The notes beneath the pieces are model-generated. The model worked only from the letters and a program-made list of their open reading frames with translations. It was not told where the DNA came from and ran no database searches. A stretch of DNA of 25,013 bases from a virus (Duplodnaviria > Heunggongvirae > Uroviricota > Caudoviricetes): positions 1 to 25,013 of IMG/VR virus record IMGVR_UViG_3300045988_007239, one strand, 5' to 3'. This document shows positions 6,750 through 24,876 of the stretch, one piece after another (position 1 is the stretch's first letter; each line of letters starts with the position of its first letter). A program made the position numbers and the translations under genes.

Positions 6750-8425
6750 TGTGATTGCCCACCCTGACCACTAAATGCATTCGCCATAGCTGACAAAACA
6801 CTCGGATCCGAAGTTTTAGCTTCGCTTAGCGTCTTGGCACCCTGTGCCGCCGCCATCCCCATCGCCATCATTTGTTGCTGCTGTTGTTGCTGTGCCCGTT
6901 GCTGGCGAGCCTGCTCAACCTGTTCCTGCGGAACAATGACGGTTGGAGACACTCCGGACATATCAGCGAATGCATCGATCGCCTGATCAACGTTGAGTTT
7001 GTCGAGAGCTTCTGGTTTCGCTTGCGCAAGTTGACCAATGAAGTTGACCGTGGATGCCAGACTGGACAGGCCGATAGACTTCTGCGCCTGAGCCATGACG
7101 GAAATGTATTCGACCTTCAGGGGCATACCTTCCATCGCGTCAGGTGGTGGCGGCAGCATGTTTTTACGCACCATCATCGAGAAAGCGCGGTCAATGAGAG
7201 GATTAAGACATTCGTCGTTCAGACGCTCCAGAACCGGCCCCAACATCAGAAGTTTTTCTTCTTTCATTTCGATCACCGCTTCAACAGGCATCGAGCGGGT
7301 ATTGATGTTCTGCAACATCATGAACAGATCGACAAAGTAGGCGCTGTTAATGATTTGACGAGTGTCCTGAATGTCTGCCACCAAATCTGCTGTACTGGGG
7401 TTAACCAGATAAGCAGGCCTGAAACTATCCTGACCAGTAATCTGATCGATATACGTGATGTCGCCAGGAAGAAGGGAGGCACGCTGATTCTTGAGGGAAG
7501 TCGGAGCAATCATCGGCGGATTGGTGGCTTTATCAATCAACTGCGACTTGCGCTTCTGGAGAAGCTGCAATGCCTTAACAGGTCCAAGCGCCAGCATACC
7601 CGGGCATGATGATCCATAAACATCTTCGCCGTTAACTTCCCAGCGCGGAGCCATAATTGGAAACTCATCGAATCCGGACTCACGCAACAACTTGTCGTTA
7701 TCGCCACCAACCTCGTAATAAACCGATTTGAATGGCTTGTTCTTGCTATCCAGCTTCGATGTATCGCGGTCAATGTTCGGGTAAACCGAATGCATCACCT
7801 CAATCCACTTCTCGTAGGTGCCGCTTTCCCACATGCTTTTTACGGATTCGCTGACGTTATTTAGCCCGAACTCCTGAACAAGCTGACGAACAGTCATAGA
7901 GAACTTGCGAAAACATGTGTCCACACTGCCACGAGGTGAGTTAGCCAGGTAGTAACTGCCTATCGGGAATGGCATTGTGCGAATGATGTCCTCGTCATCC
8001 TCCAGTACTGCCATTGCACCAGTGCTGTATGTGCCGAGGCTTCCGTATAACTGCGGCAGCGACTGATAGAGATTCGACTTATTGAACATATCGTTCATGC
8101 GGTTCTGCACCGCCTCAAGCCACAACTTAACAGGGCCATAATCCATCATTTCAGGATCTGGCGTAGCCAGGCGAAACCACGGACGCGCGGGGCTTGTGAT
8201 GCCTGACATCATGCCGCTGGCGAGAGTGCGCGCCGCCATAGTCCCGGTCGAATCAATAATGCGTGTATTGCGTCGATCGTTACGGTTGACCTCAGAAGTC
8301 AGAAAGCGGGAACCACGCGGGTTGATGTAATCACTCAACTCGCGCCAGTGCGGATCGAACGACTGACGCTCGCTTTCAAGTTGTGCGAACTGTTTGTTCA
8401 ATCGCTCTTTAGTTGTTTCCGCCAT
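6746..8425 (-). CDS. portal protein (T7 gp8-like head-to-tail connector)
   Basis: 559 aa, first large gene of the head module; Gln-rich C-terminus (QQRAQQQQQQQMMAMGMAAAQG) resembles the C-terminus of T7-type connectors (from memory). Confidence 0.8.
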   Translation of the reverse strand: MAETTKERLNKQFAQLESERQSFDPHWRELSDYINPRGSRFLTSEVNRNDRRNTRIIDSTGTMAARTLASGMMSGITSPARPWFRLATPDPEMMDYGPVKLWLEAVQNRMNDMFNKSNLYQSLPQLYGSLGTYSTGAMAVLEDDEDIIRTMPFPIGSYYLANSPRGSVDTCFRKFSMTVRQLVQEFGLNNVSESVKSMWESGTYEKWIEVMHSVYPNIDRDTSKLDSKNKPFKSVYYEVGGDNDKLLRESGFDEFPIMAPRWEVNGEDVYGSSCPGMLALGPVKALQLLQKRKSQLIDKATNPPMIAPTSLKNQRASLLPGDITYIDQITGQDSFRPAYLVNPSTADLVADIQDTRQIINSAYFVDLFMMLQNINTRSMPVEAVIEMKEEKLLMLGPVLERLNDECLNPLIDRAFSMMVRKNMLPPPPDAMEGMPLKVEYISVMAQAQKSIGLSSLASTVNFIGQLAQAKPEALDKLNVDQAIDAFADMSGVSPTVIVPQEQVEQARQQRAQQQQQQQMMAMGMAAAQGAKTLSEAKTSDPSVLSAMANAFSGQGGQSQ

Positions 8426-8646: not shown

Positions 8647-8714
8647 ATCAATGACTCCGTACGCAATTAAATTATTACCAATTTAACCACATATGATTTA
8701 TTTATCGTAGATAG

Positions 8715-8751
8715 TTGACATTTAACGCATAAATTATTACCTTTTGGGTAA
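8715..8751 (+). promoter_or_regulatory. promoter-operator module driving the tRNA insert
   Basis: TTGACA (8715-8720) followed by perfect TTACC-ttttg-GGTAA (8737-8751); the stretch acgcataaattattacc nearly duplicates the pL-like promoter at 19351-19367. Confidence 0.45.
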
Positions 8752-9073: not shown

Positions 9074-9150
9074 GTGGCATTAGCTCAGTTGGACAGAGCA
9101 ACCGCCTTCTAAGCGGTTGGTCGCAGGTTCGAATCCTGCATGCCGCGCCA
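9074..9150 (+). tRNA. tRNA-Arg (anticodon UCU)
   Basis: 77-nt cloverleaf folded by hand: acceptor gtggcat/atgccgc (one G-U), D-arm gctc..gagc, anticodon stem accgc/gcggt with loop cuUCUaa, T-arm gcagg-ttcgaat-cctgc, encoded CCA end. Confidence 0.9.
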
Positions 9151-9347: not shown

Positions 9348-9704
9348 ATGAACGACCAGCAAATCGAAAAAGAAATCGTTGAGAAAGGCAAAACGGCACC
9401 GCGAGTTACGCCTCAATATATCGAAAGCATCATTCTTGAAGAGCATTTCTTTACTGCTTATGACGGCATTCGTGCCGCCAATATGGGCGTTGGCGATTCA
9501 TGGACAGCGCATAAATCTACAGACCTCCTGACTTTCTGCGTACTGGTGCTGAAGAATGGCTTCACCGTCACCGGAGAGAGTACCTGTGCAAGTCCGGAAA
9601 ATTTTGATGCAGAAATTGGTCGGAAGATTGCCCGGCAGAATGCTGTAAACAAAATCTGGATGCTTGAAGGTTACTTGCTGAAGCAGAAGTTAAGCGAGCA
9701 ATAA
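9348..9704 (+). CDS. conserved phage protein of unknown function (possibly N4 gp49 / Sf6 gp66-like family)
   Basis: 118-aa ORF with AAGGTGAG RBS, on the opposite strand to flanking terminase and portal genes; family assignment from memory only. Confidence 0.7.
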   Translation: MNDQQIEKEIVEKGKTAPRVTPQYIESIILEEHFFTAYDGIRAANMGVGDSWTAHKSTDLLTFCVLVLKNGFTVTGESTCASPENFDAEIGRKIARQNAVNKIWMLEGYLLKQKLSEQ

Positions 9705-9720
9705 CACCGTGACATGTCAC

Positions 9721-9751
9721 AAACAGCCAGCTCATAGGCTGGCTTTGTTTT
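9721..9751. terminator. bidirectional terminator between insert ORF and terL
   Basis: AGCCAGC-tcatag-GCTGGCT stem, A-rich before and T-rich after; located where + and - strand genes converge. Confidence 0.5.
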
Positions 9752-9794: not shown

Positions 9795-11270
9795 TTAAGC
9801 ATAGGGATCGTAATCTGTGATGGCCTTGCCTTGCTGGTTCTGCTGCCCGGGAATTCGCAGACGCTTCGACACAGGGAACGCAAACGTCAGCAGTAGCGCA
9901 TCGCCTTTACCAGGAGAACGCCCAAGCCGCTCCTTGATATCTTCCTTCGGTTCGATAACGATTTTACCGTCCACGCGAACTTTGTACTCTGCCGCCGACA
10001 GGTCGTCCGCTGTTTCCTGGTCATCCAGCATGCCGCCCAGCCTCAGCCATGTCTTGCATGAGTTGAACATCTCCCCACGCTTGTTGAGCATCTGCGGGTC
10101 AGTAGACGCGCCACCGAACGGAACAAGTTGCCATGTGCGCCCCCAACCGTCACCGATTGACTTCAGCCCGGTACCGTAACCGAAGTCGATGAACACCGCG
10201 TCAGCCTGATACTGGTCTTCAAAGTCAGCGATACGCTTTGCCATAATCAGATCGTCAGTGGTCTTGTTGCCGGTCCACAGCACCTTACTGTGCAGCCCCT
10301 GCCGCAGGTATATCACCGCGTCATCAACACCGGAGTATGCAGGGTCAACGCCGATTATCACCGGAGCATGTGCCACCTGCGCAGCAGTTACCACCCGTTT
10401 CATTGCCTCGTCAGTAAGACCGGTAGGGATAAACTGCAATTCAGATGCATCAGGGAATATGCCGCGCACACGGATTTTAACGAAGTCGCTGTCTTCCCCG
10501 TAGTCATCAACCCATTTCTGCAACTGCTGTTTGTTGGTACCTTCCACCGTCCGACTGTCAATCTGCGCAGTTTTCCAGCGGTGTTTATACTTGCGGAAAC
10601 ATTCACGGAAACGTCCGGTATTACGCGTCGGGTTTCCGAACGCCACCCAGATAATCTCAGTGTCTTCGTCCGTTAGCGCACCTTCGGCAACTTCCCACAC
10701 CAGATCCGCAATGTTCGACGCTTCATCAAACACCACGATGATGCGTTTGCGCTCGTTGTGTAGTCCGGCGAATGCCTCAGTGTTGTGCTCAGACCAGGGG
10801 ATTGCGTCAGCTCGCCACCGCTTGTCGTGTCCAGGATCATTGCTGTACATCGCGGTAGCGGTACAGGTAAACCAGTCTTTCGTGATGGCAAGGTTCGACC
10901 ACTTGATAATTTCCGGCCAGGTCTTCGTTCGTAGCTGGTTGTCGGTGTTGGCGGTCACCACGACCTTACAATCCTCGCAAGTGGACATGCCCCAGTTGAT
11001 CAGCATTGAGATGAATGCGGATTTACCAATACCGTGACCAGAAGCGCGTGCCAGCATAAGCGGCTGATAGCGCGTCTCTGGATTCTGCAGGTGATCACGT
11101 ATCTCTCGGAACGCATCAGCCTGCCACTGACGTGGGCCAGTAGCATGTGCCAGTTCAGTCCCCTCTTCCCCCCACGGGAACGCATAGAGGGCATAACCAA
11201 GCGGATCGTGAGTAAACCCTGCAATATCCTCGATCAACTGCTCTTCAGGAGATAACACTGTATCTGTCAC
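9795..11270 (-). CDS. terL: terminase large subunit
   Basis: 491 aa; Walker A (ASGHGIGKS), Walker B-like IIVVFDEAS, C-terminal nuclease-like region; start overlaps small-subunit stop. Confidence 0.9.
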   Translation of the reverse strand: MTDTVLSPEEQLIEDIAGFTHDPLGYALYAFPWGEEGTELAHATGPRQWQADAFREIRDHLQNPETRYQPLMLARASGHGIGKSAFISMLINWGMSTCEDCKVVVTANTDNQLRTKTWPEIIKWSNLAITKDWFTCTATAMYSNDPGHDKRWRADAIPWSEHNTEAFAGLHNERKRIIVVFDEASNIADLVWEVAEGALTDEDTEIIWVAFGNPTRNTGRFRECFRKYKHRWKTAQIDSRTVEGTNKQQLQKWVDDYGEDSDFVKIRVRGIFPDASELQFIPTGLTDEAMKRVVTAAQVAHAPVIIGVDPAYSGVDDAVIYLRQGLHSKVLWTGNKTTDDLIMAKRIADFEDQYQADAVFIDFGYGTGLKSIGDGWGRTWQLVPFGGASTDPQMLNKRGEMFNSCKTWLRLGGMLDDQETADDLSAAEYKVRVDGKIVIEPKEDIKERLGRSPGKGDALLLTFAFPVSKRLRIPGQQNQQGKAITDYDPYA

Positions 11271-11863
11271 TGATTACCATCCTGACGTTCTTTGAGTCGC
11301 TTCCTGGCTGCTGCTATGCGATCAGCAATTGTCACATTCACATTAACATCCAGGCGTTCTTTGAATGCGTTGACGTCGACGTGCTTACCAATCAGTTCGA
11401 GGTTCTTCACCTTGTCAGGCCATTTAATTTTTTTGAGGATTGTCTCTATCGAATCCTCGTTCATGTTCATGATGGTCGATGACAGATCAAAGCCGCTAAG
11501 CGTAGTGCGCCAGATTTTCGGCCACTCGCGGATTGGTTTAAGGCTCCCATCGTCGTTGAGGATGTCGATCACGTCCATCTGGTCGATCTCCACCAGGCGC
11601 ATGAGAACGTAATCAGCACTGACGCGCATTCGTTTGTTGCGCTCCTCCATCAACTCGGCAATCCGTTTCTGAATGCGTTCATCGCGCATCATGACACTGG
11701 CTTTAACTGCCGCTGTATTTGGGGAGAATCCTGCGTTAATCGCTGCCTGAGTCTGGTTTTCAGGCGTTTTGATGTATGACTGGCAATAAGCCTCCTGCAT
11801 TGCAGTTAGTGGCTTAAATTGCGTTGATTTGCGTTTATAGGTTTTAGGTTCAGCAGGCATCAT
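11267..11863 (-). CDS. terS: terminase small subunit
   Basis: Directly upstream of and overlapping terL. Start set at the internal ATG-ATG (11863) with GGTGG RBS, because the 26 codons above it in the track ORF contain an operator palindrome. Confidence 0.75.
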   Translation of the reverse strand: MMPAEPKTYKRKSTQFKPLTAMQEAYCQSYIKTPENQTQAAINAGFSPNTAAVKASVMMRDERIQKRIAELMEERNKRMRVSADYVLMRLVEIDQMDVIDILNDDGSLKPIREWPKIWRTTLSGFDLSSTIMNMNEDSIETILKKIKWPDKVKNLELIGKHVDVNAFKERLDVNVNVTIADRIAAARKRLKERQDGNQ

Positions 11864-11880
11864 AACCACCGTGGTAATAG

Positions 11881-11895
11881 TTACCGTTGTGGTAA
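11881..11895. promoter_or_regulatory. operator-type palindrome upstream of terS
   Basis: Perfect TTACC-gttgt-GGTAA, flanked by GGTAAtag repeats, 18 nt upstream of the proposed terS start. Confidence 0.5.
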
Positions 11896-11981
11896 TAGTA
11901 CCATGCAAAATAAAGCCGCCATAGTTGGCGGCAGTATTCAAAACCCATCAAATTCATCATGCATAATCTACTCGTGACATT

Positions 11982-12320
11982 TCACACTATTAATTTCGTT
12001 TCATGCCAGCCTTTAGTCACCCAGCATTGCGAGTCACCATTACAAGGGCATGAATTAACTGGAACTCTCTCGCCGCACTTACCGCAACGTTTTCTGCTGA
12101 TCGATTTTATACGCCCGCGCACGCGTGCATCATCCTGGCGGATCAGTAACGCTATATACTCACCAAATTCGTAAGGCGCACGCCCGGGGCGACGCGTGGC
12201 ACAGTTACGCTCCAGCATTTCAATTTCCTGAGCATCAAGCACAATTTCCAGCTTACGCACACCAGATGCAGCTTGTCTTGCTCTCTGAGCGGCTTTGCGC
12301 TCTGCTGCTGATTTAGCCAT
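11982..12320 (-). CDS. hypothetical protein with basic N-terminus and C-terminal Cys-rich zinc-ribbon-like motif
   Basis: 112-aa ORF; C-x2-C ... C-x-C-x5-C cluster near C-terminus; lies just upstream of terS. Confidence 0.6.
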   Translation of the reverse strand: MAKSAAERKAAQRARQAASGVRKLEIVLDAQEIEMLERNCATRRPGRAPYEFGEYIALLIRQDDARVRGRIKSISRKRCGKCGERVPVNSCPCNGDSQCWVTKGWHETKLIV

Positions 12321-12666
12321 TCTGATTTTCCTGCATCATGAGAAATACAATCATGGCGGCTCGGAGTGGATTATTCGCATGAAAGCAAATGTTCTCGGTA
12401 TTAAAAACAGCTGACCACTCACCGCGAGATTGGTGGCAGGTTAGACTGATTTTATTATCAACAATAATAGGCCATGCATCCGATGGATTATTGCAGTAGT
12501 CAGGTAAAGGGTTTAATGGCTCAAAAATTGTATCAGTATTTCCGTAATACCATTTGTTGGTGTTATTCCCTGATGTTTCCGGTTTACACGCCCAAAGGCC
12601 TTTAAAAATTATGTCTCCTACCATTCTGTTAATTTCAAAATCACTTAACTGTGAATAGTCCATCAT
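12313..12666 (-). CDS. hypothetical phage protein
   Basis: Start placed at ATG-ATG (12666/12663) with GGAGG RBS and ATGA overlap with upstream gene stop; the track's longer N-terminus (to 12738) lacks an RBS. Confidence 0.6.
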
Positions 12667-13388
12667 TTCGCCTCCTGCGGCGGTTCTGGTAGCGGCATCC
12701 AGTGTGACGGTTTCCACGACGCACCAGGAATTATCCACCCATCATTAGCGTCAGGATGACCCGGGATGTAAGTCGCCCATTTCATTCGCCAGTCACCTTT
12801 CCTGTCAAACTCCACGGCAACAAGAACGGCTGTTTTGGTATCCGGCATTCGCTCACTACAGCTTATCCAACCATCCGGAGTTACCGGAGAGTTGCCAGCC
12901 AGTCTACGCAAAACAGCCTTAACAGCCTCAATACGGTCATCATCGCAATTTTCCAGCGTATCTATGCGGTCGAGCATGATGATGGCGTTATCAATATCAG
13001 GATTGCCGGTCCACTCATTACCGCGATTGGATTCGGCAGCCTGGTTGCGCATAATCTCAGGCGTAAGCTCTTTGTAAGCATAAGCAAGAGGCTCTGATGC
13101 ATTATCCGGCACAACCGACGCAGGCGCGGCAGCATAAACAGGAATAACGTCCGGTTGCTCTTTATTGCTTTCATCCGTTAAAGCCCAGAATAATTTCCCG
13201 GCCGGATGTTTGAAAATATAAGCAACTGGATCTGCTTCCAGCGATGCCAGTGCAATTTCCAGAACAGTAATATCCATCTTATATGTGCGGATGATGTCAT
13301 GGTCGATTGTGCCCGGTATGCACAGTCTCTGTGCTTCAATAGTCTCCTCTGCGTGAGCTATTAACTGCTCTCTGGTAAAAGTCGTCAT
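12663..13388 (-). CDS. DUF551-domain phage protein (Ea22-like middle motif)
   Basis: 241 aa; C-terminal W-x-S-x-SE-x-P ... HWMPLPEPP pattern typical of DUF551; shares YAA-x-PASVVP motif with the ORF at 14506-14841; ATGA-coupled to the HNH gene. Confidence 0.7.
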
Positions 13389-13750
13389 GCCGTAGCCCCT
13401 TCTTGATATTTTTCAAACCAGAACACAACCGGGTCAGATTTCATTTCAACCAATCCCATACGAACCAGCGCTTTGCCTTTCCCGGACGCAAGGAATTCAC
13501 GACGACCATCACTGATAATTCGCCGATAATCTTCCAGGCTGCTGCAATGCTTGTGCAGATTGCATGGGTGGCATGCCGGAACCATGTTGGATATATCGTC
13601 ACGTTCCTGGTGAAGCATATTTCCAGAAAAACGAATGACCGGTTTTACATGGTCTGCATGCCACTTTTCGCCAAGTTCACAGCCACAATAAGCACAGCGA
13701 CCACCGAACTTCATGCGCAGTTCTGCGCGTTGTTTTTTCGTCAGTGCCAT
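13385..13750 (-). CDS. HNH endonuclease
   Basis: CAYCG ... HADHVKPV ... [13 protein letters not shown] motifs; start set at internal ATG (13750) with AGGAAAG RBS; lies upstream of the terminase genes. Confidence 0.8.
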
Positions 13751-13751
13751 A

Positions 13752-14163
13752 TCAGCTTTCCTTATACGGATTAATTTTATTGTGCAGTGTGTTGAACGAC
13801 GCCCATACCACGTCGTTATACAATTCAATAACTGGCTCAATTATTTTCCCGATTGCCCAGACAAAAATTAGCGGGGATATCGGTGTCATCAACACGATAA
13901 ACAGAATGAGAAACAAAAATTCTGTCGCTCTACTTTTTCGCGGATATTCTTTTCTGAATAATGTAGGCACATCACTCTCCTTTAGTGCGCAAGTGGTTTT
14001 TCCAGCGGTTTTGTGCTGCGCTTCTGTTTCGCCAGACACCGTAAAAACGAATAGAGGAACACCCCCTAAAACCCAGATATCTATAGTAAATAACAAGCCG
14101 ATTTGAGATACGGATACGCTGCCTGGGCTTTGCTATCAGCATCTTTGCCTTACGGTTTTTCAT
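13752..14163 (-). CDS. small basic membrane protein, paralog C (apparent frame change between two frames)
   Basis: ATG at 14163 encodes MKNRKAK like paralog B; the VLGGVPLFVFTV segment that matches paralog B lies in the other frame (track ORF 13752-14096, TTG start), which also carries a second hydrophobic segment. Confidence 0.35.
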
Positions 14164-14339
14164 CGCACTGCGTACCCCTTCTCTCGTCTGTTCCGCGACG
14201 CGGTGGGTTTATAGTTAAATGCGAATACCACCCTACCAAACATGCCGATCACCGCACGTTTGTGATTGCTGATTGGTAGCTTCTCGTATCCCGTCGAACG
14301 CGATAAAAGAAGTAATTTTGCTTTACGGTTTTTCATCAT
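14160..14339 (-). CDS. small basic protein with hydrophobic core, paralog B (59 aa)
   Basis: Hand-translated: MMKNRKAKLLLL...VIGMFGRVVFAF...; AGGAGA RBS; ATGA overlaps with paralogs A and C; just under the 60-aa track cutoff. Confidence 0.45.
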   Translation of the reverse strand: MMKNRKAKLLLLSRSTGYEKLPISNHKRAVIGMFGRVVFAFNYKPTASRNRREKGYAVR

Positions 14340-14506
14340 TTTGCTCTCCTGCGTTTCTTTGCTTCGCGTCGTGCAGCAGCAATACCGGTATGGCGCTTTG
14401 GTGCCGGGATGATGCTGTCAGCCATCAGGGCATGTGGCTTTGCAATTAGCGCAGAAGCCCAAAAACGAGTCGGGTATGGTAATAAACCGATAAACGCTAC
14501 ACGCAT
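14336..14506 (-). CDS. small basic protein, paralog A (56 aa)
   Basis: Hand-translated: MRVAFIGLLPYPTRFWASALIA...AKKRRRAK; strong AAAGGAGGTG RBS; TAATG overlap with upstream ORF; below track cutoff. Confidence 0.45.
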   Translation of the reverse strand: MRVAFIGLLPYPTRFWASALIAKPHALMADSIIPAPKRHTGIAAARREAKKRRRAK

Positions 14507-15004
14507 TACGCACCTCCTTTGGCGTCAATATTTACAGCCTGGCAAGCCTCGTTGAGTACCCAGTCAACCGCGTCTTTCCATGCTCCGGTTTCGACTGGCG
14601 GATTCTCACACTTTACCTGTTCATAGAAACGCATTGCTTTAACTAGTCCTTCCGGCACTACCGACGCTGGCGGGGCAGCATAAAGCTCATGTATTCCATC
14701 AGGTAGCGAGTGACCTACATACTCACTGAACCCATCAACACACATGCATCCATCTTCAACAATGCATGACGCTACTGGCAAAGCCACCTCCCGTGCCTCC
14801 AGTTCTTCTGCCCACTCCCGAAGCCCCTTCAATCTCACCATTACGAGCTATCAGATCGCGACACAGTCTTTCGTTTCCATCCAGCAACGCCAGCACAACC
14901 TCCGGCGTAGCCGCAGCATGAAAAGCCTGTAGGTTCTGCCACGTCGTATCCCCCTTCGCGGCCTCTGCCACCTCGCGCAGTGCCTGATAGTTAATTTCGC
15001 TCAC
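14506..15004 (-). pseudogene. Ea22/Ead-like gene split across two frames
   Basis: 82-aa ORF (MSEINYQALRE...VVLALLD, Ea22-like N-terminus) ends in an out-of-frame-looking tail; the overlapping 111-aa ORF continues with coiled-coil and the YAAPPASVVP motif. Confidence 0.4.
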
Positions 15005-15308
15005 TGGCTGCCTCCTTTGCTGGGCTTTCTAACTTCTGAGTGGTTGTATCAAACTCAAACAACTTAACCACGTCATCAAACAGGACATAATCGCCATCAG
15101 AATCTTCAGTCATGTCAGCGCCACAATCCTGACCGAACGAGTCACAACCATCCATATCAAGTTCGTATCGCTTGAGTTTTGCGATATTTGATAAATTCAG
15201 CGCCAGTACAGCAAGGTCATAAACCTCATCAGCGGTATACCCGGCACCATGCCCATACATTTCAATACGGGATATGATTTCTTCTACACGTTGTTTTGTG
15301 ATCGTCAT
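14991..15308 (-). CDS. hypothetical acidic protein
   Basis: 105-aa ORF, closely packed in the nin-like region. Confidence 0.6.
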   Translation of the reverse strand: MTITKQRVEEIISRIEMYGHGAGYTADEVYDLAVLALNLSNIAKLKRYELDMDGCDSFGQDCGADMTEDSDGDYVLFDDVVKLFEFDTTTQKLESPAKEAASERN

Positions 15309-15310
15309 TT

Positions 15311-15829
15311 TTACTCACCTTCCTGTTCTTCCAGAAAAATACGCATAGCCTCAAGCATCTCTTCGGTGTCATACGGTGACAACTTGTCACGCAGGATGTG
15401 TTCAATGCTGTTAATGAACTTGCGGATTGCTTTGCGTTCAATTTCAGCAAGGAATGCGTCGGTGGCCGGGGTTTTGATTTCGTTAAGTGCATCACTGAAT
15501 CCACCTCTCTCCATACCTAGCTCTGCTTCGTAATCGGCATCGAATGCAGCGTCTTTGCAGAACTTCTTCAGCTTTGCATTCTCCGCTGCCAGCGCCGAAA
15601 ACTTCTCGTGTGCCAACTTAACAGCCGAATCAGCCTGCTTAATTGACTCAATCGCTTTCTGCTGGTCTTCGGCCAGCGCATTAGCACGCGCCAGTTGCAC
15701 TTCCAGTTGCGTTGCCAAATCGCTGATCAGCTTTGCCACACTACGCATATCAACGGCACCACATTCTGCTTTCAGTTCCGAAGCCATCTCATGCCCGGCG
15801 GCAACTAACCCTTTGATATTACTTTCCAT
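15311..15829 (-). CDS. hypothetical coiled-coil protein
   Basis: 172 aa, Ala/Glu/Lys-rich heptad-like sequence; GAGGG RBS. Confidence 0.65.
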   Translation of the reverse strand: MESNIKGLVAAGHEMASELKAECGAVDMRSVAKLISDLATQLEVQLARANALAEDQQKAIESIKQADSAVKLAHEKFSALAAENAKLKKFCKDAAFDADYEAELGMERGGFSDALNEIKTPATDAFLAEIERKAIRKFINSIEHILRDKLSPYDTEEMLEAMRIFLEEQEGE

Positions 15830-15890
15830 CTTTACCCTCGCTTATCCACATAACTTATTGATTACATTGATAACTAAAAAGATCGTCGAT

Positions 15891-16235
15891 TCAGAACTCT
15901 TCGATGTTCCAGCCACCACCTGCTTTCTTTGGCTTAACCGTTACCCCGATGATTCGGAACGGATACTGATCTGCGGCGACTTTGGTTTTCACCCTGGCGT
16001 CGTCGGTCCAGAAACCTTTCACTTCGTGCAGTTCCATCTCGCCGGTGGCGAGCATCACAGCAAAATCGGGCGTATAGAACGTGTTGTCAGCTAACCGCAG
16101 CTTGATACCCTCGAATCGATACCAGGCGATTTCCCCTGCACGTTTACGCAGCTCAAGGTGCTGGCAATACGCAGATTCTGTTTTGTTCATCTGGCCTGTT
16201 TTGAGTCGACCAAGAGCCTGTATCTGTTTTCTCAT
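15891..16235 (-). CDS. DUF1064-like protein (putative nuclease/resolvase-like)
   Basis: 114 aa; Y-x-x-DF ... E-x-KG ... D ... K pattern resembles DUF1064; an operator palindrome overlaps its RBS and start. Confidence 0.6.
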   Translation of the reverse strand: MRKQIQALGRLKTGQMNKTESAYCQHLELRKRAGEIAWYRFEGIKLRLADNTFYTPDFAVMLATGEMELHEVKGFWTDDARVKTKVAADQYPFRIIGVTVKPKKAGGGWNIEEF

Positions 16236-16238
16236 GAT

Positions 16239-16313
16239 TTACCTCTAAGGTAATTAAAAACCACATAAGACACGAAATCAATAGAGTTTAGAATATTTTA
16301 TTACCTGATAGGT
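16239..16313. promoter_or_regulatory. two operator palindromes flanking a candidate promoter for the nin-like genes
   Basis: Perfect TTACC-tctaa-GGTAA (16239-16253) and TTACC-tgata-GGTAA (16299-16313); a TTGATT -35-like element lies between them on the - strand. Confidence 0.5.
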
Positions 16314-16352
16314 AATTGTTGAGGCGTAAAAAAATGCGCTATCGCGCTGGTA

Positions 16353-17129
16353 TTACTTGATAAATCCTGCCGCCTTTCCCCGCCTGTATTCCTCCATCAG
16401 CCACTGCGCCGGTGTTATTCCCCCAAGGGTGGCGGCGTTAGGCATACACCCGAAACTTCGCCCTGGTGGATGGTAAACGTCTCTCCCTGTGTCCGGAGGC
16501 GTACTCATGGGCTCTGGCTTTGCCTGTATGCTGATCACCGGATCCGGTATCTGCTGTCCGGAAGCCACCTTTTTCGCCCAATCATCGAGCAGCCTGCGCG
16601 CGTGTTTCTCAACCTCAATCTCGCTAAGCTGGCGCTGATACATTGCACGGCGGGTATCACATACGACCCAGTACATAACCGGATGTCGCCACGGGAATCT
16701 TTCGGGACCACCAGGATATAAACTTTTTTCCTTGCTGTACCGGTGAAACTCCGCCATCACATCGTCAATGGTGACGCCAAGAACCATCTTGCTGTCTTTA
16801 CACCACTTGATAAATTGCCCTGGCGACGGCCAGAACGGAGATTCACTGGCGCGGGCGTGGCGCATACCAGCGTTAACCTGTTCCATTGTAGTGATCCCAT
16901 TCTCCAGAAACGCAAGCATCCATTGCTTACGGAATTCATTAAGTTTGTTCTGCTCCCTTATGGTCGAAACGCTTGCAGGAAATGCAGCCTGTAACTGGAC
17001 AAATAGTTCATTGAAAATTCTAGCGACCTGCTCCTTTTTGCCATTGCTGTCACGCCGCTCTTCATGCACAGCAACACCATGCTCACGTAAGCGATCGTAC
17101 TCATTGAGAAGTTCTGGAGTTGATTTCAT
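16353..17129 (-). CDS. replication protein, lambda P-like helicase loader
   Basis: 258 aa; FPAS ... [14 protein letters not shown] ... PSPGQF matches lambda P family signature as I remember it. Confidence 0.8.
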
Positions 17130-17931
17130 CCCACACCCCTTCTATCCAGTCAGTGTTATTCCAGTCAAGCTCATCGCTTTTCCCGGCGTTTTTTGATTTT
17201 CCCCTGATATGATTTACGTGCCTGGCGAATTTTTGTTCCCACTGAACCTGCGTGAACACTTTGCCCTCAGCCATCCAGTAATCCCGGAATGCAGCAAGTT
17301 CAGCAGGTGTAAATTCCGGTTCCGGCAGGGCCGTTCCCCACAGCGCAGCACGCCGTCGAAAATCCGGCGATGGATGCCAGCCATCGGTCATCGGAAATTT
17401 CCCAATAGGTTCACTCAGGCCATCCAGAAATGCAGGTTCTGCCACCTGCAACGGCGTACCGTTCGCTTCACTGGTCGGATCACTCTCGCGCGCGTGTGCT
17501 ATGTGTGGGGTTTTATATATATCTTCCTCTTCCTCTTCCTCTGGTAACTCCTTTTGTAACGCTGTTGGCGTTACTTTTTGCGTTACTCGTTTTCGATGCT
17601 CTGCCACTCTTCTATTCGTAAGTGCACGTTTTTTCGATGATTCTCCATTATGTCGCTCAAAGTTTGGAAGAATTAGTTTGCCGTCATGATAAGCAAGCCA
17701 TCCGACGCTAATGAGGGCGTCAGCAAATCCTGTAATAAAAGCGAGTCTATCAAGTACTCCTTTTGTAACGCTGCCAGCGTTACCGTCTATTGTTTGCTGG
17801 TCAGCCCATGCCCATATACGAACCAGCTTTCCAAGAACAGCATCTGGATCAATACCCAGAATTTCTGCTATCTGAAAAATTTCAGGTTTATCAGGAGTGA
17901 TAACTTCAACCTTAATCCAGCTGCTTGCCAT
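17101..17931 (-). CDS. replication initiator (replisome organiser N-domain, DnaT-like C-domain)
   Basis: Start set at ATG 17931 ([10 protein letters not shown]..., GAGGGG RBS); poly-Glu linker; C-terminal DnaT-like region; contains nucleotide-level iteron-like repeats. Confidence 0.75.
17543..17792. repeat. candidate replication origin: iteron-like repeats inside the initiator gene
   Basis: 18-bp direct repeat actccttttgtaacgctg at 17547-17564 and 17765-17782; each carries GTAACGC-N5-GCGTTAC (17556-17574, 17774-17792), plus an extra GCGTTAC at 17580-17586. Confidence 0.45.
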
Positions 17932-18124
17932 AGGTTTCCCCTCTTGCACTCTTTAGTGCACAAGCAAATTCATTACGATGGCGGTTGGCGCTATTCATTG
18001 CACATTCAACACATGTTCCGTTCAGAACATACCTTTCAGAGAGATGGCCGTGACGGCACCGCTTTCCTGTGAAATAGCGATTTAACCCGGCTTTTGCGGC
18101 CTCCATTCTGGTTACTATCTTCAA
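17912..18124 (-). CDS. small zinc-finger protein in the cII position
   Basis: C-x-H-x-H ... C-x2-C cluster; start uncertain (TTG at 18124 with GGGGG RBS, or ATG at 18106); overlaps start of the initiator gene. Confidence 0.4.
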
Positions 18125-18203
18125 TTTTTCCGCCCCCTTTTTGTTATTGATATTGGCTATTTTGCACAATTGGAAAATTTGATCAACCAGATTTGGTTTT
18201 TTA

Positions 18204-18218
18204 TTACCTTTGAGGTAC
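18204..18218. promoter_or_regulatory. imperfect operator palindrome
   Basis: TTACC-tttga-GGTAc, 9 of 10 specified bases; just downstream of the cro-like gene terminator. Confidence 0.3.
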
Positions 18219-18224
18219 GAATAG

Positions 18225-18251
18225 ATATGAAAAGACCGCCGGATGGCGGTC
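18225..18251 (-). terminator. intrinsic terminator after cro-like gene (tR1-like position)
   Basis: GACCGCC-N4-GGCGGTC stem followed on the - strand by TTTTCAT. Confidence 0.55.
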
Positions 18252-18273
18252 TACAGAGGGTTGTGGCTGGATA

Positions 18274-18504
18274 TCATGAGTAGAAGAAGTATGCCAGTTC
18301 TGCTTTTGAGCGCAGCCATTGTCTTGTTTTACAGGCTTTAAAAAGCCCATTCATCAATACCTTACCTGGCATTTTGCGCTTACCTGTTAAGTGAGTCTGG
18401 ATATAGTGACTCGTCGTTCCGGCTTCCTGTGCGAAGGCTTCACGCTCATCCGGAGTAAGTGCAAGCCAGTGCTTTTTGAAATCGAAATGTCCGTTATCGC
18501 TCAT
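18274..18504 (-). CDS. Cro/YdaS-like HTH regulator
   Basis: 76-aa ORF divergent from the repressor gene; helix-turn-helix-like segment; classical cro position. Confidence 0.65.
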   Translation of the reverse strand: MSDNGHFDFKKHWLALTPDEREAFAQEAGTTSHYIQTHLTGKRKMPGKVLMNGLFKACKTRQWLRSKAELAYFFYS

Positions 18505-18540
18505 AGCTATTGCCTGATATTTATTTCAGATAATAAATAT

Positions 18541-18603
18541 TCACCCATAAGGTAACAAAAATCAAGGATAGTTACCTATGAGGTGCATTTACCTGTTGGG
18601 TAA
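18541..18603. promoter_or_regulatory. immunity-region operator cluster (OR-like) with divergent promoters
   Basis: Three sites: tcACC-cataa-GGTAA (18541-18555), TTACC-tatga-GGTgc (18572-18586), perfect TTACC-tgttg-GGTAA (18589-18603); between divergent cro-like and repressor genes. Confidence 0.55.
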
Positions 18604-18658
18604 TATTGCTTTAAATTGAATCATCTACTGATTCATATATGAGGCGATTTTCCAGAAA

Positions 18659-19243
18659 ATGAAAAGTATCCAGGACGTCCGCAGGCAAAATCTCAACGAC
18701 TTGATCGACCGTGAATTCAATGGTGTTCAGACGCGGATGGCAGAAAAACTTGGAACTCAGGCAAATCTGGTAAACCGCTGGGCTCTTGGCAAGAAGGTTA
18801 TCGGCGACCAGGTTGCACGAAAAATTGAAGCTGCCGCCAATAAACCCCGTAACTGGCTTGATATCGATCGCTCGCTTTCTCAGGAAGGTTTTCAGCCTGT
18901 CGGCCCGAGCGATATAGGTCAGCTGGCGGCTCACAACCTGGAACGCTGGATGAGCGAAAGCCGCGACCTTTCAACGCAGGGAAAACTACACCGCGCATCC
19001 GGCGTCGCCCAGGTGACAATCAGCCGCCTGTTAAACAATGAGGTCAGCGTTTCCATTTCCACCCTGGAGAATGTTGCATCCGCATTCGGGCGTCACGGCT
19101 ATGAATTACTGATTCACCCGCACGACCCTGCGACCATCAACTATGATCGCTCGCGCTACGCATTGTTACCCGAAACCGAGAAAGCAAAGATCGAAAGTTA
19201 CATTGAATTTGTCATCAACCAGAACGAAAAAAACAAACAATAA
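18659..19243 (+). CDS. phage repressor with two HTH (XRE-type) domains, no LexA-like peptidase domain
   Basis: 194 aa; two HTH-like segments (LGTQANLVNRWALGK and SGVAQVTISRLLNNEV); no Ser/Lys peptidase motif region; followed by a strong terminator. Confidence 0.75.
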   Translation: MKSIQDVRRQNLNDLIDREFNGVQTRMAEKLGTQANLVNRWALGKKVIGDQVARKIEAAANKPRNWLDIDRSLSQEGFQPVGPSDIGQLAAHNLERWMSESRDLSTQGKLHRASGVAQVTISRLLNNEVSVSISTLENVASAFGRHGYELLIHPHDPATINYDRSRYALLPETEKAKIESYIEFVINQNEKNKQ

Positions 19244-19300: not shown

Positions 19301-19377
19301 TTACCTAATGGGTAATTTTTTTAACTCATATCTATTGACATCAAACCAGATACGCATAATTATTACCTCAACGGTAA
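19301..19377 (+). promoter_or_regulatory. pL-like promoter with two operators
   Basis: Perfect TTACC-taatg-GGTAA (19301-19315); TTGACA (19335-19340), 17-nt spacer, AATTAT; perfect TTACC-tcaac-GGTAA (19363-19377) at the predicted transcription start. Confidence 0.6.
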
Positions 19378-21596: not shown

Positions 21597-21845
21597 ATGA
21601 AAGGTGCATTAGGTAAGAAGGAACTCCTGGCGGTGGTGCCACTGTCATGGAGCACTATCGACCGTATGGAGCGCGCAGGGGAATTTCCTAAACGCTGGTA
21701 TATCACCGATAAACGCTGCGCATGGAACCGTGATGAAGTTGAGCGTTGGCTTGATGAACGTCAGGCAGCAAGCCCGGCAGAGTTCCAGGGTAAAAAACCT
21801 CCTGTTCAGCAACGTGTATATCGTCCTGTGAGCAACGCGGCATGA
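21597..21845 (+). CDS. AlpA-family DNA-binding protein (excisionase/regulator-like)
   Basis: 82 aa; S-x-STI-x-R ... G-x-FP ... W-x-x-x-EV-x-x-WL pattern typical of AlpA/Vis-type proteins. Confidence 0.7.
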   Translation: MKGALGKKELLAVVPLSWSTIDRMERAGEFPKRWYITDKRCAWNRDEVERWLDERQAASPAEFQGKKPPVQQRVYRPVSNAA

Positions 21846-21954: not shown

Positions 21955-22254
21955 GTGAGAAAGTTAAGCCGACTTGAAAAATATCACATGAACAAGGTTT
22001 CAATGCGCAGCCCTTCAAAGGTTGTTGCCGTTACTCCTGCGGCGATAGAGATCGAAAAACGCGCGATTGAAAGAGAGAAAAAAGGGCAGTTCCGCATTGC
22101 CGCCCACCTTTGGCTTCAGTGTATGGATGTTGCTTCTGGTGATGTTGAACGTGCAAGGATCGCGGTTCGCAGGGACCAATGTATCACAAAAGGTAACGGC
22201 CTTCGCCGTGGCGACTATAGCGGCATAGGATGTTGTGGGGTGGTTTATGACTAA
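21955..22254 (+). CDS. PerC/ANR-like small regulator
   Basis: 99-aa ORF (GTG start per track); RIAAHLW ... ERARIAVRRDQC resembles the PerC-family motif; assignment from memory. Confidence 0.45.
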   Translation: MRKLSRLEKYHMNKVSMRSPSKVVAVTPAAIEIEKRAIEREKKGQFRIAAHLWLQCMDVASGDVERARIAVRRDQCITKGNGLRRGDYSGIGCCGVVYD

Positions 22255-22897
22255 GAAATACACACTAATCTATGCAGATCCACCCTGGGTATACCGGGAC
22301 AAAGCCGCAGATGGTAATCGCGGTGCCGGTTTTAAATATCCGGTTATGAGTGTGCTGGATATCTGCCGCCTTCCTGTGTGGGATTTGGCCGATGAAAACT
22401 GTCTGTTGGCCATGTGGTGGGTGCCAACACAACCACTCGAAGCACTAAAAGTTGTTGAAGCCTGGGGATTCCGTCTGATGACGATGAAGGGCTTCACGTG
22501 GATAAAATGTGGTAGTCGACAACCAGATAAACTGGTTATGGGTATGGGACACATGACTCGCGCCAATAGTGAAGATTGCCTGTTTGCGGTAAAGGGAAAA
22601 CTACCTACGCGCATTAATGCAGGGATCGTTCAGTCATTTACCGCACCGCGGCTTGAGCATTCAAGAAAGCCAGATATCGTTCGTGAAAAACTTGTGCAAT
22701 TATTAGGCGATGTTTCTCGCATTGAACTGTTCGCCCGCCAGACGTCTCATGGCTTCGATGTTTGGGGTAATCAGTGCGAAGACCCGGCAGTGCAACTACA
22801 CCCTGGATACGCGTTGGATATCGGCGGATTAACAAATGCATTCAGCAATGCTCCGCTGTCACCAACAGACAACCAGGGGCGGGAGCGTGCAGCATGA
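22247..22897 (+). CDS. MT-A70 family N6-adenine DNA methyltransferase
   Basis: IYADPPW motif near N-terminus; start taken at ATG 22247 (track uses GTG 22235). Confidence 0.8.
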
Positions 22898-23553
22898 ACC
22901 TATATCAACGCATCAATGGCGCTGACTGGTGCAATATCTTCGTCGTCGGCGATCTGCATGGGTGCTACACGCTGCTGATGAACGAACTCGACAAAGTTTC
23001 ATTCGACCCGGCGCGCGATTTGCTTATTTCCGTTGGTGACCTTGTTGACCGCGGCGCTGAAAACGTCGAATGCCTGGATTTGATTACTATGCCGTGGTTC
23101 CGAGCTGTTCGTGGCAACCATGAGCAGATGATGCTGGATGCACTGGTCAACGGCGGAAGTTTCGGACATTGGATGTCAAACGGCGGTGGATGGTGGCACC
23201 AACTTGATTCTGAGCAGGATGTGCAACTCAAATACCTTCTGCCAAAGGTTACCAACCTCCCGATGATTATCGAACTGGTTACCGGCAATAAGAAGGTCGT
23301 CATCTGCCACGCAGACTACCCGCACAACGAATACGCATTCGATAAGCCAGTACCGGAAGAAATGGTGATATGGAATCGTGAGCGGGTTAGCGACGCGCAG
23401 GACGGTATTGTCTCGGAGATAACCGGTGCCGATTTGTTCATCTTCGGTCATACGCCAGCACATCACCCACTGGTGTATGCAAACCAAATGTACATCGACA
23501 CCGGCGCAGTGTTCTGCGGAAATCTGACGCTTACCAAAGTCCAGGAAGGATAG
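22894..23553 (+). CDS. Ser/Thr protein phosphatase (lambda PPase-like metallophosphatase)
   Basis: GDLHG, GDLVDRG and GNHE motifs; start at ATG 22894, overlapping the methyltransferase stop (ATGA); the track's N-terminal extension is rejected. Confidence 0.85.
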
Positions 23554-23555
23554 AA

Positions 23556-24812
23556 TTATTTATTACTGTCTTCCATCCACTTCTCAAACTTCGACGGGGA
23601 GAACGGAATCAGATCCGTATGCTCCCCGTTAATCCAGGAATCAATCATATCGGCCCACTGCTGCAACATGTAGGCGCGCTGTCTGGCGTATTCCGCTTTG
23701 TTATATACGGCGCGCACACCTTTCTGCTCGTGTGCCAGAGCCTTTTCAATCCAGTCTGAAGGATAACCAGCCTCATGCAACAATGTACTGGCTGTACGGC
23801 GCATATCATGTACAGTGAAATCCTGAATATGCTCACCATCTTCATTTATTATTTTCACCGTTCTGTCGATCAGAGAGTTCAGCGCGGCATTAGATAATGG
23901 CTTCCGGAAATTGTAACGACCAGGAACCAGATATTCACTTCCACCAGCGCACATCTGCAACCCGACTAATATATCCTGTGCCTGTTTAGGCAGGTAAATA
24001 ACGTGCGCCCGACCTCCCTTCATGCGGTCTGAAGGAATTGTCCATGTCCATTTTTTAAAATCTATTTCATCCCACGTTGCATTGGTTAATTCTCCCTTAC
24101 GAACCATGGTGATAAGCACCAGCTTTAAAGCCATTTTCATAGTGCCCATAGCACCAATGGCATCCAGCGTGCGGAAGAACAGGCCAATTTCTTCTGGTGT
24201 CAGTGTTCGCTCTCGTGGTTTAAATATGGCGATAGACGAAGGTTTAATGTCAGCCGCAGGATTAAACAAACCATGACCACGGTCATTGGCGTGACGGTAT
24301 ACGCTGCTGATGATCTCCCTGGCCTGTACTGCTGTTGCCCGACCACCGCGTTCGACAATCCGGTCACACAAATCACGAACCATCGATGTGGTAATTTCAG
24401 CCATCATTTTGTTGCCAAGAACCGGAAGTATGTCACGGTCGATCACCGCCTGCTTCATTGCGCGGGTACTGTCAGCCAGGATGACGTGTTTCATATAACT
24501 GTCGGTATGTACCGCAAACGTCTCGGCACCACGAATCTTTTTAATACCGTCACGTTTAGCCGCAGCCGGTGACTGGCCTGCTTTAAGCAGCTTCTTTGCA
24601 GCAATCAGTTCTTCTCGCGCTTCTGCCAAGCTGATACCGTCACGCCCATACTGCCCGATTACCAGTGTTTCGCGGCGACCGTTGATACGGTAGTCATAGC
24701 GAAACGAGACCGTGCCTGACGTAAGCACAGCTACATACAGCCCGTCACGATCGGAGACCTTGTACAGTTTGTCCTGCGGCTTGAGGTTTTTTAATTTTGT
24801 ATCGGTAAGCAC
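23556..24812 (-). CDS. int: tyrosine integrase (P4-type)
   Basis: 418 aa; arm-binding-like N-terminus, catalytic-domain motifs (HDMRRT, C-terminal Tyr region); GTG start at 24812; convergent with the early-left operon. Confidence 0.9.
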   Translation of the reverse strand: MLTDTKLKNLKPQDKLYKVSDRDGLYVAVLTSGTVSFRYDYRINGRRETLVIGQYGRDGISLAEAREELIAAKKLLKAGQSPAAAKRDGIKKIRGAETFAVHTDSYMKHVILADSTRAMKQAVIDRDILPVLGNKMMAEITTSMVRDLCDRIVERGGRATAVQAREIISSVYRHANDRGHGLFNPAADIKPSSIAIFKPRERTLTPEEIGLFFRTLDAIGAMGTMKMALKLVLITMVRKGELTNATWDEIDFKKWTWTIPSDRMKGGRAHVIYLPKQAQDILVGLQMCAGGSEYLVPGRYNFRKPLSNAALNSLIDRTVKIINEDGEHIQDFTVHDMRRTASTLLHEAGYPSDWIEKALAHEQKGVRAVYNKAEYARQRAYMLQQWADMIDSWINGEHTDLIPFSPSKFEKWMEDSNK

Positions 24813-24835: not shown

Positions 24836-24876
24836 TTCATGACGGTATGAGAGTATACCTTTAAGGTAATACCGTC
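24836..24876. promoter_or_regulatory. long palindrome with embedded operator-like site in the integrase promoter region
   Basis: TGACGGTA ... TACCGTCA outer inverted repeat enclosing aTACC-tttaa-GGTAA (24855-24869), 25-65 nt upstream of the int start. Confidence 0.4.

Follow-up and report, generated by a model that had tools for sequence, protein, structure and literature searches.

At the early/late border of phage lambda (Q, PR', qut, tR'), the early genes end with that of a small regulator and an intrinsic terminator comes next; the late promoters of lambda carry no repressor operators. Other phages place a single repressor at many scattered sites, including sites before late functions, as is the case for the C1 operators of P1 and the gp71 'stoperators' of mycobacteriophage L5. 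The L5 sites are asymmetric, depend on orientation and stop elongation, and the late promoters of P1 additionally use the activator Lpa. Here, we analyzed a stretch of 25,013 nucleotides (nt) from a virus of the class Caudoviricetes (IMG/VR record IMGVR_UViG_3300045988_007239, positions 1 to 25,013; this whole stretch is hereafter called the window). A preliminary description had noted that neither a Q-type antiterminator nor a lysis cassette is located between its replication and packaging modules, and it had left open how the late genes are switched on. We find that the missing Q and the distal lysis genes are real, but that they constitute a normal and previously described layout of epsilon15-like temperate phages, in which the late genes are probably organized in blocks with repressor-guarded promoters of their own.

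The window is an Escherichia coli prophage of the epsilon15/phiV10 group, a temperate podovirus of the genus Uetakevirus; epsilon15-like phages are common prophages of E. coli and Salmonella. Using positions 11000-19000 as a megablast query, we found that the Uetakevirus relatives TL-2011b, HEMP4 and ZX5 presented 96-98% nucleotide identity over the aligned 65-72%, and phiV10 was also among the matches. Among 5,426 complete E. coli genomes, about 200 harbor a prophage that matches at least 80% of the window. Nucleotide similarity and gene order are common to the named members of the genus, and the window possesses a repressor of the SPC32H/epsilon15 type together with TTACC-N5-GGTAA operators at OR, at OL and at dispersed sites. 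The likeness to epsilon15, phiV10, TL-2011b, ZX5 and SPC32H extends to the positions of these operators, to a gp49-like gene and a terminator before terS (the small terminase subunit gene), and to the distal lysis cassette. Relative to these phages, only the accessory cassette differs, with a small open reading frame (ORF) array and an HNH gene that are common to Stx phages and not to epsilon15. In addition, one Ea22-like gene appears frameshifted and a palindrome associated with a gene for a 112-amino-acid protein shows a rare point change. The combination of a lambdoid early region with a podovirus late module had been described as a fusion; it is in fact the standard mosaic of a named genus. 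As stated, the layout is not new and rediscovers the published epsilon15-like arrangement, which was previously annotated for epsilon15.

To map the genes, all ORFs of appreciable size in the window were compared with the Pfam, PHROGs and NCBIfam libraries. None of these ORFs, in the operon running from cro to terS or in the rest of the window, matched a family of Q/antiterminators, holins, endolysins or spanins, and no Q family (Phage_antitermQ, Antiterm and Phage_antiter_Q in Pfam, and their PHROG equivalents) was matched at E values up to 0.01-0.1. The segments 14991-15829 and 11982-12666, whose hypothetical ORFs had been named as the places to look for a Q-like protein or an endolysin, yielded no such profile match: the ORFs at 15829-15311 and 15308-14991 are Ea22-type or unknown, and the ORF at 12666-12313 is NinX. 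The ORF at 12320-11982 had been taken as a plain hypothetical gene, which did not hold, as it matches phrog_536 ('transcriptional regulator', E 1.6e-54) without similarity to Q. The absence of these genes stands, but the region that separates replication from packaging actually extends over 16352-11861; the interval originally quoted, 13385-18504, takes in cro and the replication genes and omits the last three genes before terS. The family scans also recovered the contents that had been reported for the interval (Ea22/DUF551-type genes, the small-ORF array and an HNH endonuclease), as well as the T7-type portal (PF12236, E 1.7e-186) and T7-like tail genes.

The lysis genes had been predicted to lie beyond the left edge of the window, and this is where we found them in the prophage of E. 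coli UTME-8, which is 97.8% identical, and similarly in relatives. Two holins, a GH19 endolysin and a DUF2514 spanin are located ~15 kb to the left of window position 1 in the UTME-8 prophage, where they are the last phage genes and are followed by the host gene yfgI. Moving left from window position 1, this prophage presents internal virion proteins, reverse-strand accessory genes, the tailspike and the lysis cassette, in this order. The same distal lysis cassette, with the same gene order, is found in TL-2011b, epsilon15 and BUCT554.

The repressor gene rep (18659-19243, plus strand) encodes a protein with two helix-turn-helix domains (Pfam HTH_3) and no protease domain. The protein is homologous to the SPC32H repressor Rep (PDB 5D50, E 4e-42), which is said to form a tetramer and to be inactivated by an antirepressor, and it is 42% identical to the repressor of epsilon15. 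The 15-bp operator TTACC-N5-GGTAA was identified 11 times in the window with at most one mismatch, relative to 0.38 copies expected. All the copies are intergenic, and a twelfth copy with two mismatches (18572-18586) completes the three operators of OR, between cro and rep, together with 18541-18555 and 18589-18603; the promoter-like sequence TTGTTA-17-TATTAT lies at 18558-18530 on the minus strand. At OL/PL, two operators located 62 bp apart (19301-19315 and 19363-19377) flank TTGACA-17-AATTAT (19335-19363, plus strand). A second pair with a distance of 62 bp (16301-16315 and 16239-16253) delimits a putative internal promoter region before the DUF1064 gene (16239-16315, minus strand), with TTGATT (16281-16276) and TTTAAT (16258-16253) separated by 17 nt between the two operators, and this paired arrangement is repeated in TL-2011b, epsilon15 and BUCT554. 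Two operator-like sites with one mismatch are found just past the intrinsic terminator that follows cro (site 18204-18218; terminator 18233-18252, minus strand, RNA fold of -15 kcal/mol, z -5.2) and upstream of the integrase gene (24855-24869).

Operators were also identified at the late genes. The preliminary description had pointed to an operator copy upstream of terS as one candidate mechanism for late-gene control. This copy is real and conserved, but there are two tandem copies (11881-11895 and 11863-11877, the second ending 3 nt before the terS start codon), and other late blocks carry the operator too. The control region of the block containing gp3 and the portal gene (8685-8751, minus strand) is composed of an operator (8737-8751) and a conserved block with ATATGTGGTT (8694-8685). 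A core set of operators is common to TL-2011b, epsilon15 and BUCT554: two at terS, one at gp3, two at the DUF1064/RuvC position, and those of OR, OL, the tailspike and int. An additional copy precedes the lysis cassette in epsilon15, BUCT554 and the UTME-8 prophage. Across four phages the half-sites of the terS operators are kept and their 5-nt spacers differ, and in BUCT554 an extra gene separates the gene of the 112-amino-acid protein from terS, yet the operators stay at terS. In the GenBank record of epsilon15, positions 12-27, immediately before terS, are labeled as a repressor-binding site; the record also lists repressor sites ahead of gp3, of the tailspike gene and of the RuvC-like gene, and it marks a terminator behind gp49.

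It is terS that directly follows the early/late junction, and the lysis genes are not the first late genes. An intrinsic terminator is located between the early operon and terS (11915-11932, minus strand, RNA fold of -16.4 kcal/mol, z -2.9), and a terminator is annotated at the same place in epsilon15. A candidate late promoter, TGGTACTAT (11895-11903, minus strand), resembles an extended -10 promoter lacking a -35 element, and it overlaps the first terS operator by one base, its final T. The counterparts of this sequence are TGTTACTAT in epsilon15 and TGATAGTAT in BUCT554, with the TG and the hexamer kept. Among 77 near-identical loci, we found the variants TGGTACTAT, TGATACTAT, TGGTATTAT and TGTTACTAT, all of which possess the TG, and the -10 hexamer alternates between TACTAT and TATTAT in natural variants. 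No consensus promoter was reported by a promoter scan between 11982 and 11932. The junction terminator, the DNA-binding protein of 112 amino acids encoded just upstream and the operators at the other late blocks had all gone unnoted in the preliminary description. In some relatives, an extra gene between the gene of this protein and terS is controlled by an SOS box, TACTGT-N8-ACAGTA, and another SOS box controls a reverse-strand gene before the tailspike (BUCT554 8190-8260; BUCT711 ~1800-1860; L144 ~12830).

The control regions of gp3, the tailspike and the lysis genes present a CCATATGTGGTT block located 32-45 nt downstream of a single operator, without a -35 element. This block was also found before the DUF1064 gene in several members of the genus. 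Its positions are 8685-8694 and 16259-16268 in the window (both on the minus strand), ~24750 in epsilon15, and 12926 and ~14925 in L144. It is possible that the CCATATGTGGTT block is the core of a family-specific promoter, and we keep ATATGTGGTT as a late-promoter motif only as an idea.

These observations lead us to consider it fairly likely that the late blocks possess their own repressor-guarded promoters and that no Q-type read-through takes place. The interval would then simply be the early-right operon that is usual for a temperate podovirus of the epsilon15 type, and it would contain neither Q nor lysis genes because, as we propose, the genus does not rely on a single long Q-antiterminated late transcript. 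At least four late blocks would exist: terS-terL; gp3 with the portal and virion genes; the tailspike; and holin-endolysin-spanin at the far end by att. Each of them would be headed by the same 15-bp operator as OR and OL. The intrinsic terminator would close the early operon, transcription of terS would restart at the extended -10 TGGTACTAT, and the two tandem operators would cover this promoter from its last base on. In a lysogen, the SPC32H-type repressor would shut the early and late promoters directly, and its inactivation (by an antirepressor in this group) would free both sets together. Since the late promoters lack a -35 element, the delay of late expression is probably set by a phage-made positive factor or by gene dosage/template amplification, and a positive factor is probably also needed for the late promoters. 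The late region is broken by reverse-strand genes and by bidirectional terminators, which follow terL and, in relatives, the gp18 homologue, and therefore one transcript cannot reach the tailspike and lysis genes. The repressor-guarded part of this proposal rests on sequence conservation and on the annotation of epsilon15, and the timing part is what we infer.

Several points weigh against this proposal. The late promoters are predictions from sequence for every member of the genus, and the one at terS was not reported by the consensus promoter scan because it lacks a -35 element. The motif shared by the late blocks, ATATGTGGTT, is not enriched within the window alone. The Cro-like protein, if it binds the same sites, should also damp the late promoters during lytic growth. 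All the relatives that we found share one operator specificity, even though their repressors are 42% identical, and therefore the late sites offer no test of co-variation with the immunity region. Finally, we found no experimental work on late-gene timing in epsilon15-like phages in the searchable literature.

Compared with lambda, the window presents the same kind of border, with a small regulator as the last early gene and then an intrinsic terminator, and it shares several lambdoid early genes (a P-like loader, NinX, Ea22 and RecET). It differs from lambda in that it lacks a Q-family protein and a proximal lysis cassette and appears to lack a PR'-type unit, in that repressor operators are located at its putative late promoters, and in that its late genes are probably divided among several blocks, each under its own control. 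The logic of dispersed operators is like that of the C1 regulon of P1 and more loosely like that of the L5 stoperators. The sites of the window are symmetric 15-bp palindromes located at promoters, and many of them are paired, at a distance of 17-18 or 62 bp. No equivalent of Lpa was identified in the window.

The last gene before terS (11982-12320, minus strand) encodes a 112-amino-acid protein of the epsilon15 gp49/N15 gp46 family, which combines a ribbon-helix-helix (RHH) domain with a C-terminal cysteine cluster. An exhaustive profile search returned only 209 clusters at 50% identity for this family, which spans podoviruses, N15-like, lambda-like and P2-like phages and Vibrio siphoviruses, and whose members are usually named 'hypothetical'. 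The protein and 66 of its relatives had no Pfam match, and no curated RHH family was matched by the protein, which gave a sub-threshold NCBIfam match to LexA-regulated YbfE (E 0.052). The structure model predicts an N-terminal strand-helix-helix (RHH) fold with high confidence. A first model based on a shallow alignment had reached a predicted local distance difference test (pLDDT) score of 68.6 without any fold match, and a deeper alignment fixed this.

In the C-terminal 60 residues of the family, two cysteines (C79 and C82) are invariant and two more (C91 and C99) nearly so, and this region presents weak but consistent matches to TraR and YbiI (PDB profile E 0.009-0.016). The alignment of residues 47-107 covers TraR almost completely, the CxxCGxx(I/L/V)P motif and the third Cys among the matched positions, and the hhalign probability against a TraR alignment is 78.6%; overall, the similarity is below usual significance. 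PF01258 was not matched by the protein; of the four Cys of the TraR/DksA zinc finger (CxxC-x17-CxxC), three align and the fourth is a Thr. The protein also differs from TraR/DksA by an extra Cys between these, by the added N-terminal RHH domain and by its loop before the long helix (RRPGRxPY), which is basic and invariant in a 40-sequence alignment of closer relatives. The acidic helix-tip residues of TraR/DksA factors, which reach the active site of the polymerase, are not present in the family alignment.

This family is accompanied by a 12-bp palindrome, GTGAC-NN-GTCAC. The window copy GTGAAATGTCAC (11974-11985) overlaps the stop codon of the 112-amino-acid gene and is a one-base variant of GTGACATGTCAC. 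A perfect copy of GTGACATGTCAC is located at 9709-9720, where it adjoins a terminator hairpin (9725-9744), and both lie between terL and a convergent gp49/66-family gene on the reverse strand (9348-9704). The palindrome was found at or just past the stop codon of the homologue in TL-2011b, epsilon15, BUCT554, 66FD, Omnitron, BUCT711, the lambda-like phage Chlobot and N15. The N15-like set (35 non-redundant loci, 278 kb) contained 38 copies, relative to ~0.3 expected from base frequencies, and in 33 of these loci the palindrome was located at the stop codon. The same was observed in 74 of the 77 loci close to the window, among which GTGAAATGTCAC is a rare variant. About 25 of these 77 loci possess a different extra ORF that starts right after the palindrome. 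When we considered the exact 14-mer TGTGACATGTCACA, a homologue was encoded in 32 of 120 IMG/VR loci, and in 14 the 14-mer was located exactly at the stop codon. Palindromes are found at positions 2142, 19517 and 39612 of epsilon15, 7267 of N15, and 5505 and 8220 of Vibrio phage K253. Epsilon15-like genomes present perfect copies by the terminator hairpins after terL and at the end of the gp18 homologue; in K253, which has no annotated Q, the copies precede the holin block and the terS start codon, the latter by 19 nt.

Its co-occurrence with the gene suggests that GTGAC-NN-GTCAC may be the cognate site of the 112-amino-acid protein. The predicted RNA fold of the palindrome is weak (z near 0), and therefore a DNA site is more likely than an RNA hairpin. 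We also rejected the palindrome as a general partner of terminators, since it adjoined one in 8 of 114 contexts relative to 1% of control positions; such adjacency is a feature of epsilon15-like genomes only. The palindrome has the same half-sites as matS of E. coli (GTGAC[AG]N[TC]GTCAC), with a spacer of 2 nt instead of 3, and no copy of the 13-bp matS was found in the window. Homology of the family to MatP was rejected at the sequence level (hhalign probability of 0.5%); MatP possesses a four-helix bundle and a coiled coil where the 112-amino-acid protein has its zinc-finger tail. A literature search returned no paper containing the palindrome sequence.

Late expression could be explained in other ways than by repressor-guarded promoters. 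From cro through terS and further on, all the genes point the same way with little space between them. The late genes could be expressed mainly by transcription that starts at the early promoters and passes a leaky terminator unaided, with the late operators acting only as extra locks or roadblocks in the lysogen. BUCT554 lacks a hairpin directly upstream of terS, and its SOS-box-controlled gene would run into terS unless it is blocked, as such read-through would have it. We nevertheless regard this scenario as improbable given the two stable terminators on the path (after cro and before terS), the splitting of the late region by reverse-strand genes and bidirectional terminators, and the conservation of the TGn -10 element beside the operators. 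It appears more improbable still that an unrecognized antiterminator or late activator is encoded among the other early genes and acts on promoters with the CCATATGTGGTT block. The candidates are a PerC-family gene (21955-22254, plus strand), an AlpA-like gene (21597-21845, plus strand) and an 85-amino-acid Cys/His ORF (18169-17912, minus strand). The matches to the PerC family (E 6e-7) and to phrog_868 ('transcriptional activator', E 6.5e-62) speak for such a factor, as do their conservation in the genus and the CCATATGTGGTT block that the gp3, tailspike and lysis regions have in common without any -35 element. None of the candidates matches a family of the Q, N, Ogr, Mor/C or Lpa type, however, and the CCATATGTGGTT motif is not enriched in the window; its conservation may merely reflect the orthology of the flanking regions.

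The late switch might instead be the 112-amino-acid protein itself, which would bind the GTGAC-NN-GTCAC copy that closes its own gene, as well as copies where other transcription units end, and would promote terminator read-through or activate a downstream promoter, so that an unrelated protein would do a Q-like job. We consider this a tentative possibility, unlikely on present evidence, and it can coexist with repressor control. The protein is encoded where Q would be expected (the last early gene, then a terminator, then terS), its RHH fold is predicted with high confidence, and its C-terminal 60 residues resemble TraR, which binds RNA polymerase. The stop-codon palindrome was found in every epsilon15-like phage examined, in Chlobot and in nearly all of the N15-like loci, and the encoding of a homologue in IMG/VR loci with the exact 14-mer points in the same direction. 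The additional palindromes of epsilon15-like genomes are located 0-5 nt from terminator hairpins, and the sites of K253 precede its holin block and terS. Conversely, terminator adjacency is rare outside the epsilon15-like phages (8 of 114 contexts), and in N15 and Chlobot the palindrome has no terminator beside it and directly adjoins the ribosome-binding site of the small gene that follows. The resemblance to TraR is below usual significance, with one of the four zinc ligands replaced and a loop that is basic rather than acidic; the protein has no Pfam match, and the window's own copy of the palindrome is mutated. Moreover, N15 and Chlobot carry a Q-like protein besides this gene, and the palindrome is not at a fixed distance from the terS promoter: the spacing in epsilon15 deviates from that of the window by 17 bp, and that in BUCT554 by hundreds of bp. 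Both observations speak against a simple replacement of Q by this protein.

For the family as a whole, it is doubtful, and somewhat more so, that its members are site-loaded transcription factors in which the RHH domain reads the palindrome and the TraR-like tail engages RNA polymerase, driving the early-to-late switch of phages without Q. If this were true, it would represent a new kind of transcription factor supplying that switch. The family nevertheless constitutes a target for experimental analyses, as an RHH/zinc-finger family without a described function that is associated with a matS-like palindrome at its own genes across unrelated phage types. Separate late blocks with repressor-guarded promoters remain the reading that we favor, and the sequence yields testable features for it: an extended -10 at terS covered by repressor sites and operators before the other late blocks.

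The remaining genes of the window follow the order of the genus. The early-right operon, on the minus strand, starts with a Cro-like small helix-turn-helix protein (18274-18504; phrog_35 'transcriptional repressor', E 5.6e-13), followed by the 85-amino-acid Cys/His ORF. Pfam, PHROGs and NCBIfam scans identified a DnaT-domain replication initiator (17949-17101) and a lambda P-like helicase loader (17129-16353). The accessory nin/ea-type genes (12313-16235) consist of the DUF1064 gene, three Ea22-like genes (15829-15311, 15308-14991 and 15004-14506), the small-ORF array (14506-13752; four small ORFs, with homologues of 933W L0066-L0069 and a DUF4014 gene), the HNH gene (13750-13385), the DUF551 gene (13388-12663) and NinX. 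Past the junction, terS (11267-11860; PF03592, E 1.4e-29) starts at the ATG at 11860 as in relatives, and terL is located at 9795-11270, both on the minus strand. A tRNA-Arg with anticodon TCT (9074-9150, plus strand) lies between terL and the gp3-portal block, beside the gp49/66-family gene, and was the sole RNA family matched by an Rfam scan of the window. The minus-strand late genes that follow it encode gp3, the portal, a protease, the capsid and T7-like tail proteins. On the plus strand, the PL-type operon comprises RecE/RecT, AlpA-like, PerC-like, methyltransferase and NinI-like genes and is convergent with the integrase gene (23556-24812, minus strand). The NinI-like Ser/Thr phosphatase gene (22774-23553, plus strand) is located by int, in the same leftward early operon as the PerC-family gene.

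Several additional features were observed in the accessory and replication genes. The Ea22-like gene at 14506-15004 (minus strand) is split into an N-terminal Ead/Ea22 domain (15004-14756) and a C-terminal part (14841-14506) in overlapping frames; its span is not a multiple of three, and a frameshift is therefore likely. A 34-nt segment of the DUF551 gene (13105-13138) is repeated in two Ea22-like ORFs (14651-14684 and 14889-14922) with 91% and 71% identity, and it encodes the common peptide YAA(P/A)PASVVP in the DUF551 gene and one of the Ea22-like ORFs. This repeat may be a recombination linker between accessory-gene modules. We considered the small-ORF array as a tandem-repeat array and rejected this, as its members are real small genes common to Stx phages. 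Two paralogous ORFs of 59 and 63 amino acids at 13972-14339 (minus strand) both belong to phrog_1380 and present near-identical 21-nt starts, and together with the adjoining 56-amino-acid ORF and the DUF4014 gene they match L0066-L0069 of 933W, from the early-left region of Stx phages. Finally, the replication-initiator gene contains a TCTTCC repeat that encodes a Glu run (17522-17560) and two copies of a 19-bp hairpin-forming sequence, GTAACGCTG..CAGCGTTAC, located 209 bp apart (17556-17574 and 17765-17783). By analogy with lambda, these initiator-internal repeats represent a candidate origin of replication.

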